A stretch of DNA of 61,249 bases, filler included, from Globobulimina sp. (GCA_003354225.1; 18 parts of 18 records of this genome joined end to end with filler, not necessarily neighbours in it); one strand, 5' to 3'; numbered from the whole stretch's first letter, positions 10,613-51,140 are shown. Notes: generated by a model not told the origin, from the letters alone. A program made the numbers and translations.

Positions 10613-10935
10613 GGTTTAAGTACAAAAAATCTTTAAAGCTAAAAAAAATCACATCAAAGTGCTTTGAATCATTTTGTTGCATTGTCGCAATGAACAGCGG
10701 TTCAATGTTGTTAAATACTTAAATTCCAGCAGTTTTTTTATTTAATATTATGAAAGTTTTGGATCCAAAAATTCTTTGATACTAAAAAATTCTGCAAATG
10801 TTTCAACAATGACTTTACAAAAACACATGGCTGAAAAAAAAGCATTTCCCATATTTCGATTGTTGTCGTAAACGTATGGAATAAATATCAGTGAAAAGTG
10901 TGGTTATTAGCAAGAAAGCAAGAAAACAAAAAGAA

Positions 10936-11185
10936 GGTTCAGTATCTCAAAAGATAGAGGATGTGTCTGCGATTTCTATCGTTTCTCCAAATAACAATTT
11001 GTTTCGCGGCGTTCGAATCCCGCCTATACCCTCACAGGTATAGTGGCTGAGTGGTCTAAAGCGTTTGGTTAACACCGAATTTCAACACAATTGAATTCGA
11101 TCATGATTGATACATACATATGTTTCACAAATATAATATTTAGCAGCAATTCACATTGATGTAGGTTTAAATCCTACCTGAGCCA
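10936..11185 (+). tRNA. Outer tRNA-like gene A (anticodon GCG as written) with a ~177-nt anticodon-loop intron
   Basis: 5' half: GGTTCAG (10936-42), D arm TCTC/GAGG, stem TGTGT, loop CT-GCG-A (10967-72). 3' half: TCACA (11151-55), TTGAT, T arm GTAGG-TTTAAAT-CCTAC, CTGAGCC-A (11178-85). Acceptor pairs 7/7 with one G.U. T5 run follows at 11203-07. D and T loops are non-canonical, so it may be a pseudogene. Confidence 0.55.
10986..11074 (+). tRNA. Inner circularly permuted class II (Leu/Ser-type body) tRNA-like gene B
   Basis: 3' half first: CCAAA (10987-91), variable arm AACA-ATT-TGTT, GCGG(C)G-TTCGAAT-CCCGC, CTATACC (11024-30). After 6 nt (CTCACA) the 5' half: GGTATAG (11037-43), TGGCTGAGTGGTCTAAAGC, G, TTTGG (11064-68), TT-AAC-A. 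Acceptor 7/7 and anticodon stem 5/5 Watson-Crick. Confidence 0.65.
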
Positions 11186-11202
11186 AATGAATAGTATATA
11201 TA

Positions 11203-11207
11203 TTTTT
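11203..11207 (+). terminator. Candidate RNA polymerase III terminator (T5)
   Basis: First run of four or more T after 10936; starts 18 nt after the 3' end of tRNA A. Confidence 0.45.
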
Positions 11208-11499
11208 ATATCAAAAAAAATGCCACACTGAATTAAATAACTCCAAACCGCTGCGGTATAATGAACAACACAAAGCTATGGTAATTTGATGACCTTTATA
11301 TTTATCTGAAACATGATATTCTTTCGATCATTGTTGGTTTCCCTGTTATGTCATATAAGAAACATTCGGACAGTTCGACACTCATAAACCGATTTGCCGT
11401 GCATGTTTTTTCGTCCATGCTTTTTATTTGTAGTTAGGATTTATATGATAAAGTTTTCGACTTTGAATTCCAAATAACTGTATTCTTCATCGTGCTACA

Positions 11500-13544
11500 A
11501 TGTCAGTCTCATATCATGAAAATCTGGACGTGTTGATACTGGGTGATAGTGGCGTAGGCAAATCGACATTAATAAACTGTTACATAACGAGGAATTTTTC
11601 ATTTGTCCCGTCAGGTGCATTAAAATCAAAAATTGAGCTCCCAGGAACAGAATATGGCTGCAAATCAGTCAATATACACTTATGCGACACAGCAACCTAT
11701 AACCAATGGAATGAGAATTTAGAGAAATTAATCTTATCCTCCTCCATAGTCTTAATTGTCGGCTCTTGGGACAATCCGCAGTCAATAAACCGCATCGAAA
11801 ATCATTGGTTGCCATCATTGTTGAACAAATTTTCAATTCCAATCATTATACTGATAAATAAGTCAGATATGTTGGGTGATTTGGATAACATTAATTATAT
11901 GAATCACGAGTACAGAGCCGCACTATGCCAGCAATTACAAAATTATGATGCTGGGATAAAGCATGTCTTTCAGACCTCGTGCATTCAAATAAAATCTGTG
12001 ATCAATGCGTTTGACGTCGCCATTCAATTAATTATATTCCCAGTACACATTTTAAAATCAAACAATTATCTCAATCTAATCAATGCATTGAAGCGTATAT
12101 TTCATATTTTCGACCGTGATAACAACGCTTTGCTAACCGGTATGCTACGAATAAACTTGACATTTCTTGCAATTTCTAACAAAGTGGCTGGAATATACTG
12201 TATACAGATGATGAGATATTGTATTATTATCGACATTGTTTGACATTGAATTCAATGAAGTCGTTCCAATTGGACAGAATCAAAAAATATTTACTTTCAA
12301 AGCAAAGCCAAAGTAATCAATATATCCTTAGCAATAACATCACTTTCAGCGGATTTGTGAAGTTACATTTGATTTTAATAGAGATGTCGCAGCATGATAT
12401 GGTCTGGAAATCGCTGCAAAAATTTGGCTATGCTCGCAAAAACCTGCTAATTGTTCCAAATATTTATCCCAAAATGCCCAATAAAAGGCAATTTACAAAC
12501 TTCTGTTTGCGGCATAATCCAATATTACGCTCACAAAAACAAACAAAAAGCAGTCGATTACAATACGAATTGAGTCCAAATATCTTAGGCTTTTTAATTG
12601 CAATTTTTACAGAATATTGCGAGAACAGACACGATGAGTACAATGGATCTGAATTTAATAACAACATTCATGAATATTCCACGTGTTTTATCACTGAATC
12701 CGGATTAAGTGAATTGTTAAATAATTATAATTTAAATGAGTTCCCATTTAACTCTGACGATTTGGAACTGGTCGGCTCCAAAACAAAGACATTAACATTA
12801 ACTTGCTGGTTATCACTATGGTCGCTATTGATGCATTTTGAGACCGAGAGGGCATTACAATGCTTATTGTTTATGGGCGGACCGACCATATTTCCCTCCA
12901 ACAATTTGATACCAAAATGGAGTGATTATGTAAACGCGCAAATGGCTGCACCTTCAAATACCTACCAACGGTTTTATAATTGCTTAGTTGTGAGCTATCC
13001 GAAGGAGCGGCATTTAATAAATGAATTTATCCGCTGCTCAGTGGGTGATTTTAGCGGTGATAGCCACAACGACACAGAGTTAATACAGCGGTTAAACACG
13101 ATTTTTTTATTAAAACCAAAGGATAAAAAAGCAAATTGTAATAATAAATATTCGTACGGAATGTTGAACGATGCAGGAAAATCACAAGAAATTTATCAGC
13201 AACATCACAATTTCCTGCATAAAAATGAAAATAATAAACGAAAAGCATTGATTCAAATCAATGTTTTGGACACAAATCATGGCATTGATATTTATCATAC
13301 GCTGTTGGAAGCATTTGAGGAGAACTTATTGACGGAAAAACAGATAAAAAAATATGACGCCGTCATATATCTTCATACGGCTCATTCGTTAAGAAAATGT
13401 AGGAAGAAAATCAAAAATTTATACAATATTTGTAGAGATAATAAAATGGCGATAATTACGGTGAATGCGATGCATAACGAGAGTGATGATGGTGATTTGG
13501 AGGAAATGTTGAATTTTTATGATTTGCCGTTGAAAATAATTAAA
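11500..13544 (+). CDS. RHOT: Mitochondrial Rho GTPase (Miro)-like protein, divergent, 3' partial
   Basis: P-loop GDSGVGKST, INKSD, and LKRIFHIFDRDNNALLT-DDEI EF-hand rebuilt across intron 12140-12207; ITFSGFVKLH, VWKSLQKFGY and LTCWLSLWSL match Miro. Confidence 0.82.
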
Positions 13545-18444: not shown

Positions 18445-20364
18445 ATGGATTTGTCTTTATCACAGTTGCAAGAATATATTCATTATTATGCAATTCACAA
18501 AAACTGGAAAGAATTAGAAATATTAATATCAACAACAAAATGGAATGACAATGAATTATGCAAGTACTGGAATGCAATTTGTTGCCTTAAAAGGGGAAAT
18601 ATTATCCAATCCCGTAATTTGTTCAAACAAATAGATCCAAATTCTAATTATAACCTTGCCTCAATTTGTGGTTTGGTTGAAACATATTTAATCACAACAG
18701 AAGACGATGAAGAATTTGATGAATCACAAATGTCAATATCAAGATTGAAGTTAAACATTAAAAAATTATCCAAGACAGATAATGTAGACCGTTTAATGAA
18801 CACAGCAATATATTTCTGGCAAATGGGCCGATTAAAACAAGCCAGACATTATGCAGAGAAAGGCTTAAATCTCAATAAAGCGAATATAGATAGCATGGCC
18901 ATTTGTGGCTGGATACATTTAAACGAACAATCATCGAAATACAAAAAGAAAGCAACGTCATTTTTTGGTGCGGCTTTATCAATTTTACAGAAAACAAAGC
19001 AAAATAAAAACGATGAATTACCATTATTAGCAATATACGGATTAGCTCGATGCTATCAATTAAAAGGAAAATTGAGAAAGGCAATAACTTGCATCACCCA
19101 GCTCATTGTACACAATCCATGGTTTGTTGATGGATTAGCTGTAAAATCGGAATTACAAATATTAATCGGTCGACATAAAGAATGCATTGATACCATAAAC
19201 AGATTACATAATAATAATATACACGGTTCAGTAATAAAACTATGTTATTTTTTAATGTATAATGGAAATTATAAAAGCATTTTAAACCACTTACAATTGT
19301 TATACAACCTATTCATTCAACAATATAAATTAAATAAATATCCATCGTATTCAACATTGTTTTATAATATATCTAAAATAACATCAAAATTTGTGATTCA
19401 TTCTACAGAGATATTGGAAATGTGCCAAAAATTTATAAGTATTGCTGTTGAATTGGAGCCAGAAAATGCAGAATATTTGACATTGCAAGCAAATCTTTAT
19501 TTATATTTAGGATATATACAAACTGCATCATCATTATTCCGCGATGCGTCCAGTTTTGATGAGAATAATATTGAAGCACTGTGTGGCGCGATTTATTGTC
19601 GAGTATTAAAATGTGAATATTCAGAGGCAAATCAAGAGTTACAATTTCTCACAGAAACAATGGAAATAAATACAAATAAGTTATACATTTTCTTACAAGC
19701 AATAATTTCAGGCAAATTACAACAGAATGGAGATGAATTTAATGTGTATACAAAATCTGCATTAGAACAATATACAAATGATTTAAATAGTTGCTGTTTT
19801 TCACAGTACTTTGATTTGTGTGCATACGACCCTCGTTTTGTTGTAATGGTTGCTTCTGAATATTTAAAACATGGCCCATCAGAGCCTTTGTGTTCAACTG
19901 ATCGACCGAATAATTATTTAAATGAATGCAATATTGTATTGGAAGAATTATGTGGAAGAATACCAGGAATGATTGATGCTCATTTATTACATTCAAAATG
20001 TAAGTATTTGTCAGGTGATATCCATGGATCAGAATGTATACTATCAAAAGTAAAAGACGTTGATTCCAATCATTGGAGAACGCATTTATTACAATGTCAG
20101 GTTGCTTTATATACACAAAGTAACAATGAAGCACAAACATGCTTGGATATTGTCATTGGATTAAATTTTCAAATTCAAACAACTTTAATGTATCATATAA
20201 TTAAAGCAAAATTACTGAAATCAAATGGTTTGCATCAAGATGCTATCACATTATTAGAAAATATTACTGATAAAATTTATTCTTATTTTGATATAAAAAA
20301 TGAAGGAAACGTAAATCGTCAGATTTTAGCACAGAAAAAAGCGATTTTATTTTCCAAATATGAA
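18445..20364 (+). CDS. TTC21B: Intraflagellar transport protein IFT139 / TTC21B, 3' partial
   Basis: TPR-rich ORF with YIHYYA at the N-terminus, GWIHL, DENNIEALCG, PSEP, PGMIDAHLL, HLLQCQV and GLNFQI. Confidence 0.8.
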
Positions 20365-20464
20365 NNNNNNNNNNNNNNNNNNNNNNNNNNNNNNNNNNNN
20401 NNNNNNNNTTAATTAATTAANNNNNNNNNNNNNNNNNNNNNNNNNNNNNNNNNNNNNNNNNNNN

Positions 20465-44512: not shown

Positions 44513-47494
44513 TTATTTCCATTTTTGAAACAGTTTTCTATTGTCACATTCCATGGATATCCTCAAAACTTTCATTAATAATTTCATTGACATAAATGTG
44601 CCGGCCAAGCGAAAGGATAATAACATTTTATTACCTTGTTCTGTGGCTCCATCATTGATATTCGACATTAATCCATTTCCATATTTGTAGCTTCGACAAC
44701 AATACAAATCACCACATTTATGACCATTTGCATGTGGCTCATCCATAGTAAATACTGTATTTTCAAAATATTTATATTCCCTTAATAATGCGGAGTCTTT
44801 TGTTTTGCATGGATTATCATATACGATATGTTCGGGTGCGACATCCATAGTGCACGTACACGCAGATATTACATCATCAACGCTCTCTCCATCCTTGCAA
44901 ACATGTGTTAATATCCCAACGCGATGCGGACAACGTCCAATCATTACAGCAGATGTCATTTGTGATTGTTGTACGTATGTTTTATTGCATTTTGAATCAT
45001 CCTTTTTATTATTTTTCCCATCAATACTATAATTCAAACGATATCTTTTTAATTTACCGCCATATGCAGAGCCAGAATTTTGATAATCACCAAATCTATC
45101 TGTGTCTGATTGTGACACTGTCATATCTTCTAATGTTGGATTTGTATCATTATATCTATTGGATAGGATTTCTGCTCTTATTGCAGCGGCTCTTTGTCCA
45201 ATCAATTGAATGAATTTAATAATGAATGGTGGAATATTTTTGAATCCATTATATATTTTAATCAATATTTTAATCAAATCATGTAATTGGATGCATTTAT
45301 TACAGAATAATTGGGTTTGTTTTTCCCAATCAATTGCCCCAAATTCAACTAAATGATCGATCAATTTTGGATGAGCTAATTGCAATAAATTAACAGAGCC
45401 AAACAAATGACGCAATATCGGATTTATATGATAAAGTAGTTGTGTATGGATGTCATCATTATTTTCAGCTTGTTTTATTGCATATATCCATTGAAGAAAA
45501 TCTTGCAAAATTATATTTCGACGTAAATATGCATTTAACTTATTAATTTCTGGCGCTTTGAGTGGTTTAAATGGTGGATCAATCCTTCGTTTTCCGAATA
45601 TGTTCACAGTTTTTCGTTCTAAATATTTACGGATTTTGACAACTTTGATAAAGCGAGTGCTATCTAAATATTTAATATTAACGATTTTTTCATGTGATTG
45701 ATTGGAAATTCTCGGTGTATACAATGCATCGCAATATAATTGTGAGAAAGTAATAAATGTTCCATCAAATAAGACAATTCTATATTGATTGGTGCAATTT
45801 GGATCACATAAAAAGCATCTAAGTCCATCAAACCATTCAAATAAATCAACACATACTGACCACATAGATATAAATTTCTTTTTTGACACAAATGAACATT
45901 TGCCTCTATTTAAATATCTATCGATCAATTGATCAAAATAACCACTAAATGTTTTATTACGTCCGCTGACAATGTATTTGGTGATATCAACAATAAGTTC
46001 GTGTGTGAATAATACTGTGTCATGATAATTAAATATGTGTTGTCCACGTCCGTCAAAATAATGTTTTTTGCCACATAAACAAAACCAATTAAATACTTCA
46101 ATTTCTGATATGGATTTGTGTACGTCGTAAATAGTAGCTTTGCACTTATTACTGTTTGTTACACAACCTTCACTTTCACTTGTTCGACTACAAGAACAGA
46201 CTTGCGTTTCAGGATAAAATTTTAAAGGATGACTAGCTGGGTGAACATATGCATAATAATTATTATATAATTCAGAATCACAATTATCATATTTTGTAAT
46301 CAATGAGAGTGGAACAGGGACGCTTTCCGTTGAGTATAAATTTTCTACTTTAAATGAATCACATCCAATCTCCATTATCCTTTGGTACTCTCCTTTTCCT
46401 CTAACAACATCATAAGCTGTATTATCCAATGCTGTTTTCAATGTATCATCCAATAATTTTGTATGTAAACAACCTCCACTGTTATTTTTATCTCTCCCTT
46501 TACTGCCACATTTACCACATTTCAATTTTCCTGTGTGATTTATCCATAAACTTATCTTGACTCCCAATCTATTCATGACAAACATCCATTGTTTTTTGCC
46601 ATGTTCCACTGCCTTAATCAAAAATATTTGAGGATCTTGCGATAATAATTCATCTTCGGTTATATCATGATAGTGAATTTGTGTTGGATTTGCATGTTCT
46701 GTTATTAAATGAGATACCATTCCATGAATACAAAGTGGCGATTTATCGCCATCTGACAAATTATTTGAAAACTTTCTGGCATTGAATTGAATACAATTTC
46801 TATCACAGGTCCACCGCCCATCTATTTTTGATACATTTAATAATTTACCAAATAAGATTTTATCCGTACTCAAATTATATTGACAAAATATCATCCATTC
46901 ATTGGACATTCTAAATACGCATCGATTATTAAATAACAATTTGTTGTGTGTTAAATGATCAACCTCAGAACACACGTATTGCGGATATGAACTATGACTG
47001 ATTGCTGTTATTAAATGAGTGAAATTAGTTGACTCTGTTTCGAATTCTAAAGGCGGTAAATCAATGGATTGATTTGTAGCGTGTGCCGCATCATCGATTT
47101 GTAAATCGTAAAATGTATCACTTATCATATCATTCGATCCATAATTGCATATTATTTGATCCATAAAATTGCATTGATTTATCTCATTTTGATATTGCGA
47201 CTTTTTAGTATGTGGTTGAGCTATATTTGGTGGTTGAGCTATATTTGGTGGTACAGCATTTGGTGACTTTGTTTTGGTGAAACAACTATTGTTGTTAAAA
47301 AAACTTGACCTGTATTCATATGATGATTCATATGATGAACCATTATTAATTATTTGTGGTTGTGTTCTTTTCGATGTTGTTGATGACAGCTTGCGTTTTT
47401 TGCTGACACGTTTCTGTGAGCCAGACAAAATCGCGACCCTTTTATCAACACGCGACGTTTTGCGTTTGTATTGATACGTTTTAAAATTCAACAT
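44513..47494 (-). mobile_element. KDZ (Kyakuja-Dileera-Zisupton)-type transposase with SWIM-like and CxC zinc modules
   Basis: 993-aa intronless ORF. WTCDRNC...CIH and CGKC...CLH, CSC...CLC, then VLFDGT, CPHRVG, GES, VYDNPCK, DEPHANGHKC and TEQGN, the motif order of KDZ/HMGXB3-like catalytic domains. Confidence 0.78.
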
Positions 47495-47635: not shown

Positions 47636-48283
47636 NNNNNNNNNNNNNNNNNNNNNNNNNNNNNNNNNNNNNNNNNNNNTTAATTAATTAANNNNNNNNN
47701 NNNNNNNNNNNNNNNNNNNNNNNNNNNNNNNNNNNCTTTCTCGTCGCCGGAATATGTGACGGCATTGCATCCCATCCAAACGATATCGCTGTCGCCTCAG
47801 GAATTGAACCTGAATCTTCTGGATCAATGCAGTGCTCTGCTTGAGCTAGGCGACGTTTATCCATTATCGATTTTTTATGTGGAGGTTTATTTTTCAAATG
47901 AATTATAACCCATATGGAGAGACAGTAGAGGCAATAGAGTGAGGACGATTTATTAATCCACGCTGCTGGCAAGCAATCCTCTTAGACATAAGTAGACTTG
48001 AAATGTAACGGTCTCGAAAAAAACTTAGTTAGCCATAGTCTAATCTACAGGGAAAGTATTCGGTTGTTAGAATGGAGACATATTATAAAGGAGAGAGCAT
48101 TGTATATTAACTAGAATTACATATATTCAGTTGACAAATATTAATTGATTATTTACAATGTCAATCATCATTCAACACTGTACATTTCCATTCCGTCATG
48201 AGATTGAGACGTCGTTGATTTTGCTTCAGCAATTTGTTGCTCTGCATCCTGAGTCATAAGAATCAACGCAATCCTTTTATCCC

Positions 48284-50421: not shown

Positions 50422-51140
50422 TTTGATTCTATATTTGAAAATAATTTTTAAAAAGTTTAAATTTAGAATTATGAAATAATTATGAATGGCAGCTGCCAAC
50501 TACATTTTTTAATATCGTGGTCTGTCTGAAAAACATAAAAATATCGTTGAACATAATTTACAAAAATAGAATACTAAAACCATCACTTCCAAAACCTACA
50601 GATCGTGGCACAAATTACACCCCCTAAGGCCAGAAAAGAAAACAAGATCAGAAACGCCGGCTAAAACGTTAGTATTTTGTGCAGCATCATTATTTACATG
50701 AAAATGGGAGAAATTAAAGTACATATTATATTTAATCCATCCTTGACAATGGAATCCAATTGGATTATTTATGCGAATACGCCATGCCAGCAACCAGTGT
50801 GTTAAGAAACGTGTTGAACTATAGTCATATTACCAAAAACGAGAAATATTTAAATTGCAGTGCTGATGAAAATGATCTATGCACAAAGATGATTTGATTA
50901 CGCAGGAATGTATATACATTGTTGGAATACTGATAGCATATATTTGTGGCGCTGAGCTTACGTCCTCCCAACAATAGAATGCTTCCACTTTTTTGCAAAC
51001 AGCACAGTGCGTAGCCTTCCATCAGTAATAAGTCGCTGCNNNNNNNNNNNNNNNNNNNNNNNNNNNNNNNNNNNNNNNNNNNNTTAATTAATTAANNNNN
51101 NNNNNNNNNNNNNNNNNNNNNNNNNNNNNNNNNNNNNNNT

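Follow-up and report, generated by a model that had tools for sequence, protein, structure and literature searches.

Four half-tRNA segments were recognized by inspection of the sequence on the plus strand between positions 10936 and 11185 of the window, that is, of the whole stretch of 61,249 nucleotides that was analysed. They follow each other in the order A5', B3', B5', A3', where A designates an outer tRNA and B an inner tRNA-like gene. This order and the coordinates had been given in an earlier note on this DNA; the sequence matches them exactly and the stems proposed there are also correct. The elements of the locus are the following.

10936 to 10972, plus strand: A5', positions 1-37 of an outer class I tRNA, with the acceptor strand GGTTCAG, the D stem TCTC/GAGG, the D loop AAAAGATA (G18 A19), the anticodon loop CTGCGA and the anticodon GCG
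10973 to 11149, plus strand: intron of A, 177 nucleotides at the canonical 37/38 position, enclosing all of B
10973 to 10985, plus strand: leader of the permuted B, 13 nucleotides, with GTT at 10981-83
10986 to 11031, plus strand: B3', positions 38-73 of the inner class II tRNA-like gene, with the anticodon-stem strand CCAAA, the long variable arm AACA-ATT-TGTT, the T arm GCGG(C)G-TTCGAAT-CCCGC carrying one bulged C, the acceptor strand CTATACC and the discriminator C
11032 to 11036, plus strand: intervening sequence TCACA, 5 nucleotides, between the 3' end and the 5' end of B
11037 to 11074, plus strand: B5', positions 1-37 of B, with the acceptor strand GGTATAG, the consensus A box TGGCTGAGTGG, a D stem of 3 base pairs with a loop of 11 nucleotides (class II type), the anticodon-stem strand TTTGG, the loop TTAACA and the anticodon AAC
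11075 to 11149, plus strand: trailer of B and at the same time 3' part of the A intron, 75 nucleotides
11150 to 11185, plus strand: A3', positions 38-73 of A, with the anticodon-stem strand TCACA, the variable loop TTGAT (5 nucleotides), the T arm GTAGG-TTTAAAT-CCTAC (U56), the acceptor strand CTGAGCC and A73
11203 to 11207, plus strand: T5 run, the likely Pol III terminator, 18 nucleotides behind A73

Alternatively, the locus can be viewed as a dimeric tRNA gene with its two 3' halves exchanged. The pairing of the stems distinguishes between nested and collinear assignments of the halves. In the nested assignment, A5' and A3' form an acceptor stem of seven pairs out of seven, one of them G-U (GGTTCAG/CTGAGCC), and an anticodon stem of four pairs out of five (TGTGT/TCACA, with U31.U39). 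Concomitantly, B5' and B3' form an acceptor stem of 7/7 Watson-Crick pairs and an anticodon stem of 5/5. The collinear joints gave 5/7 and 3/5 pairs for the acceptor and anticodon stems of A5'/B3', and 6/7 (with two G-U) and 4/5 for those of B5'/A3'. The energies of the corresponding cloverleaves were -18.8 kcal/mol for A5'/A3' (20 of the 21 designed pairs formed) and -17.8 kcal/mol for B5'/B3' (24 of 24), compared to -4.0 kcal/mol for the collinear A5'/B3' (21 of 25) and -8.1 kcal/mol for the collinear B5'/A3' (18 of 20). When RNAfold was run unconstrained, the minimum-energy structure was the cloverleaf for both rejoined A and rejoined B (-21.6 and -20.0 kcal/mol, respectively), and the minimum-energy fold showed no cloverleaf in either of the collinear joints A5'+B3' and B5'+A3'.

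Both nested acceptor stems and both T arms are also present in the unconstrained fold of the whole 250-nucleotide stretch (-58.5 kcal/mol). Forcing the complete nested structure on this precursor places it 3.6 kcal/mol above the minimum, because the anticodon-stem strand of B5' favours a hairpin with its own trailer over pairing with B3'. This local hairpin of seven base pairs at 11063-11080 (GUUUGGU/ACCGAAU, 11063-69 with 11074-80) competes with the anticodon stem of B.

The classes of the arms agree within the nested pairs. A combines a D stem of four base pairs with a variable loop of five nucleotides, and B a D stem of three base pairs and its 11-nucleotide loop with a long variable arm. 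Furthermore, the tertiary pairs 15:48 and 19:56, as read from the sequence, are satisfied by the nested assignment only. In B these are G15:C48 and G19:C56, and the G18 G19 motif goes together with a TTCGAAT T loop. In A they are A15:U48 and A19:U56, the latter replacing the usual G19:C56 with one base changed in each half; the other tertiary features of A that can be read from the sequence (U8:A14, G18 and U54:A58) are kept.

Scores of the joined halves were obtained with ARAGORN. At default settings, rejoined A and rejoined B were both called and A5'+B3' was not. The values were 100.8 for A (Arg GCG), 109.9 for B, 103.2 for B5'+A3' and 80.8 for A5'+B3', on a scale in which two tRNAs of the metagenome locus L001 (see below) with Rfam scores of 66.7 and 50.5 bits reach 116.7 and 110.0. 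The value for B5'+A3' lies between those of A and B, and ARAGORN alone therefore does not reject this joint. Two passing tRNAs at once are given by the nested assignment only. The rejoined halves were compared with shuffled controls, a check put forward in the earlier note, and ARAGORN called 0/300 shuffles of rejoined A and 0/300 of rejoined B. With shuffling restricted to the 12 letters that the 3' half contributes to the stems, 2/300 (A) and 6/300 (B) were still called. The z-scores of the folds against shuffles were -3.0 for A, -0.6 for B, -1.1 for A5'+B3' and -0.3 for B5'+A3', values that do not separate the readings for B.

An ordinary dimeric gene read collinearly has to be weighed against the nested assignment. 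Its product would be a tRNA-Val(AAC) composed of B5'+A3' with a 75-nucleotide intron at 37/38, and A5'..B3' would be a decayed neighbour with a 13-nucleotide intron. The usual tRNA-Val pattern is AAC with A37, A73 and a variable loop of five nucleotides, and B5'+A3' would carry precisely these features. The Rfam tRNA model (RF00005) recognizes 11037-11185 (+) with 34.9 bits, for a gathering score of 29, and in a relaxed search A5'..B3' (10936-11031) with 15.5 bits, these Rfam/Infernal scores covering the sequence in its genomic order only. The ARAGORN score of B5'+A3' exceeds that of A, the consensus A box of B5' and the good B box of A3' stand in normal order, and the spacers of 13 and 5 nucleotides have the typical size of an intron and of the gap within a dimeric gene, respectively. 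However, B5'+A3' would have an A.A mismatch and two G-U pairs in its acceptor stem and a U.C mismatch in its anticodon stem, its D arm would be of class II but its variable loop of class I, and it would bring together G15/U48 and G19/U56. Its cloverleaf at -8.1 kcal/mol is not the minimum-energy fold, and the companion A5'+B3' obtains just 15.5 bits with Rfam and 80.8 with ARAGORN. Both collinear Rfam alignments show the anticodon stem as unpaired and flag mismatches in the acceptor stem. Neither unit folds alone as the units of a dimeric gene would (stem mismatches of 2+2 and 1+1, energies of -4.0 and -8.1 kcal/mol). Finally, a collinear gene leaves unexplained the perfect pairing of outer with outer and inner with inner halves. 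We consider it improbable. The claim of the earlier note that only the nested halves pair well is thus sustained by the stem counts and the energies; it was nevertheless too strict, the collinear pairings not being hopeless as 11037-11185 exceeds the Rfam gathering score. We conclude from these data that A5' goes with A3' and B5' with B3', and therefore that a permuted tRNA-like gene sits in the 37/38 gap of another tRNA gene.

Scans of the window did not return this arrangement. With default settings, ARAGORN found no tRNA in the whole 61-kb window, whether or not introns were allowed. With introns allowed and thresholds lowered to 90%, it listed 13 candidates in the window, including 11037-11185 as 'Tyr' with an intron; 10936-11185 was absent among these 13.

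The two 37/38 junctions were then compared with the geometry of a splice site. At the 3' junction of A, the loop bases CTGC (10967-70; positions 32-35) pair with GCAG (11143-46) to form four base pairs, CAA before the cut and T after it being unpaired. This helix had been pointed out in the earlier note; it is present, and a helix this long in the same geometry is given by 1.3% of all 12-mers of the window (p 0.013). It leaves a bulge of four nucleotides instead of three. At the B junction, the AAC:GUU helix with GTT at 10981-83 comprises three base pairs and leaves the canonical three-nucleotide bulge (T and C before the cut, T38 after it), with U32 and U33 unpaired. The pairing of the B anticodon with its leader, also proposed previously, is thus possible but weak, as 14% of the window 12-mers do equally well (p 0.14), and the local hairpin at 11063-80 competes with it. 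The splice-site helix is convincing for A only.

A further hairpin behind B5' (11076-11099), which the earlier note had described, appears in the constrained fold. No TTTT occurs from 10761 to 11202, and the first run of at least four T after 10760 is the T5 at 11203. This statement of the earlier note is borne out, but it is weak evidence because 10-15% of the 267-nucleotide windows of this DNA are also devoid of TTTT. Four predicted promoter elements would succeed each other along the genome: a weak A box belonging to A, a good B box belonging to B, a consensus A box belonging to B and a good B box belonging to A. The first two of them would be spaced as in an ordinary intron-bearing class II gene.

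The exons of A join at 37/38 into the cloverleaf of a class I tRNA of 73 nucleotides with the loop CTGCGAT and the discriminator A73. Twenty of its 21 pairs are intact, the sole exception being U.U at 31:39. With the standard code, the predicted anticodon GCG would specify Arg, and the G34 that A uses for a four-codon box is unusual for eukaryotes. GCG results from the canonical 37/38 cut of A; other junctions, which would read GCA (Cys), came into consideration because of the 2-4 bases that A3' copies in run X1 (see below) share upstream of 11150. The idea that A is a mitochondrial insert was rejected, since tRNA genes are absent from the mitochondrial genomes of retarians, according to the portion of PMC10127745 that was available.

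B is a class II tRNA-like gene of 84 nucleotides with the loop TTAACAT, the anticodon AAC and the discriminator C73. It is permuted at 37/38, so that the 3' half, the 5-nucleotide intervening sequence and the 5' half succeed each other on the same strand. Rejoined, the halves give a full cloverleaf with one bulged C in the T stem, and all 24 stem pairs are intact in a DNA of 32% GC. To our knowledge, a class II body with AAC, A37 and C73 fits no standard identity set. In its junction, class and intervening length, B fits the pattern of permuted genes described in the accessible sections of PMC3978253. There, class II tRNAs tend toward permutation, the junction 37/38 is the commonest permuted type in green algae and in the nucleomorph, and the intervening sequences extend from 1 to 74 bp, those of both Bigelowiella natans nucleomorph genes being of 5 bp.

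The peculiarities of B also suit another history, in which the architecture is real but an accident placed a permuted class II copy into the anticodon loop or the intron of A. B would then be a fossil or a passenger that is not matured to a working tRNA, and A would possibly still be spliced. One route to this state would be a mis-ligated or circularised splicing intermediate copied back to DNA, and the origin of permuted genes by reverse transcription of circular or permuted pre-tRNAs is a published scenario in the sections of PMC3978253 at hand. The bulged C of the T stem, C73, an anticodon outside the class II identities and a junction helix that is not significant (p 0.14) are all consistent with such a loss of function. 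However, B with 24/24 and A with 20/21 pairs have kept their stems in AT-rich DNA (32% GC), and the tertiary pair A19:U56 is compensated; the intact stems therefore point to selection or to a very recent origin, and thus against decay. Moreover, the loop-intron helix of A (p 0.013) and the placement of the terminator suit a working gene.

The other tRNA-like sequence of the window bears on the same question. Even at a relaxed E-value, the Rfam tRNA matches in the 61 kb are confined to the region 10936-11185 and to 47789-47855 (-). The latter, 65-67 nucleotides long, obtains 38.7 bits with Rfam and 97.1 with ARAGORN as Ile(GAT). Its acceptor stem is perfect, its D loop has five nucleotides, and its anticodon arm is shortened and mismatched. 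This degenerate state indicates that decayed tRNA copies occur in this DNA, which would suit a fossil B. The sequence adjoins an N gap at about 47700-47735 and lies just behind an open reading frame of 993 amino acids (44513-47494, -) that contains a CxC4 domain, of a type associated with KDZ transposases.

The continuity of the locus was analysed in three public runs of the sample. Run X1 alone holds the stretch, and X2 and X3 contain next to none of it. An X1 contig covering 10890-11096 spans A5', B3', the link and B5' with zero differences. A second one (11052-11175, one other letter) leads from B5' via the 75-nucleotide spacer into A3', and a third (11146-11650) continues from A3', so that all junctions are bridged by X1 contigs. 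Neither a joint nor a variant was reported among the X1 contigs over the locus. The depth of X1 at the locus is around 4-7, and its contigs were probably built from the same reads as the assembly; the agreement is therefore a matter of consistency and not an independent proof.

An origin of the order of the halves in assembly or amplification has to be taken into account, since the coverage is low and patchy, chimeric reads may occur and a repeat of 40 nucleotides lies at A3'. The depth of about 4-7, the lack of the locus in two of the three runs of the same sample and an N gap within the window would be compatible with such an artefact. The contigs that meet at 11146-11175 are joined through about 30 common bases within the repeat. 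On the other hand, a single contig runs through A5', B3', the link and B5' without difference, and another passes from B5' through the spacer into A3'. Furthermore, an artefact would have to break the sequence at three points, twice precisely at 37/38 and once precisely at the tRNA ends. We regard this explanation as very improbable, even more so than a collinear dimeric gene.

The repeat at A3' is itself visible in X1. The summed depth rises to 120-164 (bins 11124-11201), compared to 4-7 beside it and 4.1 at A5', and about 11 further X1 contigs are 90-99% alike to A3' (11147-11186). The loose ends of these contigs start at 11146-11154 and stop at 11182-11189, and the AT-rich flanks differ on both sides. 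Only the own contigs of the locus contain A5', B3' and B5', which are single-copy in X1. Since A3' is multi-copy and A5' is not, A3' may belong to a dispersed repeat, and it resembles a dispersed unit of about 40 nucleotides that extends from the anticodon loop to the 3' end of the tRNA. The A3' copies in X1 share 2-4 bases upstream of 11150. These units could be the 3' halves of many long-intron or disrupted genes with more diverged 5' halves, or alternatively a repeat unrelated to working tRNAs. The dispersal of A3'-like pieces in many copies, A5' not accompanying them, is a further point in favour of a fossil or passenger locus, which we hold to be a tentative alternative, short of the preferred status but to be taken seriously.

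The window consists of eukaryotic nuclear DNA with a GC content of about 28-39%. Among its open reading frames are matches to TTC21/IFT139, to Miro, to a HEAT-repeat protein and to LNR and EF-hand domains. For the HEAT-repeat frame, the top-ranking named homologue is a transcriptome protein labelled 'Ammoni...' (61% identity), followed by Reticulomyxa filosa (38%). A foraminiferan is thus the most likely source, as the earlier note had supposed. An IFT139/TTC21-like frame at 18445-20412 (+) has one relative only, of 62% identity, in a large protein collection; the lineage is poorly sampled there. A weak U6 snRNA-like match at 50829-50923 (+) reaches 20.1 bits for a gathering score of 44. In the window, no further copies of the locus segments were found at up to three mismatches, and the repeat, promoter and terminator scans around the locus yielded only short matches at chance level for a target-site duplication or a terminal repeat.

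A search outside the window was performed with k-mers of A3'. A 24-mer matched neither viral contigs nor prokaryote genome contigs (0 in each), and a 20-mer retrieved two loci, L001 and L002, in a metagenome scan. L002 was discarded as a relative of A3' because it is a chance match inside a coding frame. L001 shares 26 nucleotides with A3' (T arm, acceptor strand and A73); it was rejected as support, since this tRNA cluster is a different one of phage- or prokaryote-like appearance, in which CCA is encoded and the 5' half is unlike A5', and it belongs to another organism. In its region 1-900, tRNAs and tRNA-like units that have long inserts are clustered. In two of its parts (132-281 and about 740-885) the acceptor strand comes first and is followed by TGGCGGAA.

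The nested assignment suggests a scheme for the expression of the locus. Pol III would initiate just upstream of A5', transcribe through 250 nucleotides free of any T4 run and terminate at the T5 (11203). The nested acceptor stems would bring the two mature domains to fold, and the four 37/38 sites would be cut by the tRNA splicing endonuclease. The ligase would then convert the exons of A into a linear tRNA and B into a closed circle, from which RNase P and tRNase Z would remove the 5-nucleotide intervening sequence before the addition of CCA. We infer these steps, from the Pol III start to the addition of CCA, from the order and pairing of the halves.

The degree of confidence differs between the parts of this proposal. 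The interleaved architecture is very probably real at the DNA level. The outer tRNA A is somewhat more apt to be made than not. The complete statement, in which a real architecture is combined with the expression of at least A via this route, comes close to an even chance and falls slightly below it. It appears doubtful that both tRNAs would be made from the locus. We likewise see as unlikely, though conceivable, that one Pol III transcript would yield through nested endonuclease cuts the linear outer tRNA and, via a circle, the inner permuted one. Of the interpretation given in the earlier note, the structural half, a permuted B within the 37/38 gap of A, is thus supported by the pairing, the folds and the ARAGORN scores, and its maturation half takes the lower grades just stated.

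The nested layout of a tRNA in an intron was previously undescribed, the permuted kind of gene being itself known. The earlier note knew of no description of such nesting, and our search of the open-access literature agrees, as we found there no report of a tRNA gene in the intron of another tRNA. In the accessible sections of PMC3978253 and PMC3728597, 'nested' refers to introns or BHB motifs; elsewhere 'nested tRNA' designates an unrelated tRNASec inside selB. Permuted tRNA genes are so far known only from a few algae, one nucleomorph and one archaeon (PMC3978253, PMC13578239, as far as the consulted parts of both extend), and a review from 2026, in its available part, lists them solely for algae, a nucleomorph and archaea (PMC13578239).

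If the proposal is true, the locus would provide the first case of a tRNA gene housed in the intron of another tRNA, as well as the first permuted tRNA from outside algae and archaea. The transcription of permuted genes is an unsolved question, given that their A and B boxes stand in the wrong order; a permuted gene in the intron of a host tRNA would solve this promoter problem by borrowing the transcription of the host. The nesting would couple the output of two tRNAs and show that the eukaryotic splicing endonuclease and ligase are able to sort the four halves of a single precursor. The intermediates proposed in the origin of permuted genes would moreover have a living example in it. The orphan A3'-like halves would suggest that long-intron, permuted or otherwise split tRNA genes occur commonly in the lineage, and such disrupted genes would escape the standard tRNA finders. 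The standard tools read the present locus as one weak tRNA-Val with an intron, or as nothing, and foraminiferan tRNA sets may therefore be under-called.

The closest relatives of B are the permuted type II (37/38) genes of prasinophyte green algae and of the Bigelowiella natans nucleomorph, the other junction types being those of Cyanidioschyzon merolae and Thermofilum pendens (sections of PMC3978253). B shares with the type II genes the 3' half placed upstream, the 37/38 junction, the class II body, the 5-nucleotide intervening sequence and a predicted maturation via a circle opened by RNase P and tRNase Z. In contrast to them, B is devoid of flanks of its own, of an upstream AT-rich promoter and of a T stretch because it lies within the intron of another tRNA. 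The host is apparently a foraminiferan nuclear genome and not an alga or an archaeon. The junction helix of B has only three base pairs, and its AAC, C73 and T-stem bulge are atypical. Nematode nev-tRNAs resemble B in having a class II body with an anticodon of neither Leu nor Ser, but their genes are ordinary and contiguous (PMC3333845, available part).

A compares best with the canonical 37/38 tRNA introns removed by the splicing endonuclease and with circular tRNA introns (tricRNAs, PMC4536317, in part). The interruption lies exactly at 37/38, and the loop-intron helix of four base pairs stands beside an unpaired 3' junction. Unlike these introns, the A intron encodes a second tRNA-like molecule, its 3' bulge has four nucleotides and not three, and 31:39 is U.U. 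Its 177 nucleotides exceed the 11-69 bp given for C. merolae introns in the available part of PMC3728597.

Processing sites that lie inside one another are found in the nested pre-tRNA introns of archaea and in split and tri-split tRNAs (PMC3978253, PMC3728597, PMC13578239), and the pairing of distant segments brings the halves together in split tRNAs as it would here. However, in the parts of these sources that were consulted, the archaeal arrangement is an intron within an intron of one tRNA, the halves of split tRNAs are located at separate loci, and in neither system does a complete second tRNA occupy the intron. Dimeric tRNA genes are exemplified by the S. pombe tRNASer-tRNAMet and the S. 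cerevisiae tRNAArg-tRNAAsp, and in the S. pombe dimer the A and B boxes of the leader gene drive the whole precursor (PMC2566860, as available). Similarly, the locus has two tRNA-sized units a few nucleotides apart with one shared terminator, and the A and B boxes of its leader unit could drive the entire transcript. Whereas each unit of the known dimers folds alone, the 3' halves are swapped here, and therefore each tRNA needs one half from each unit.
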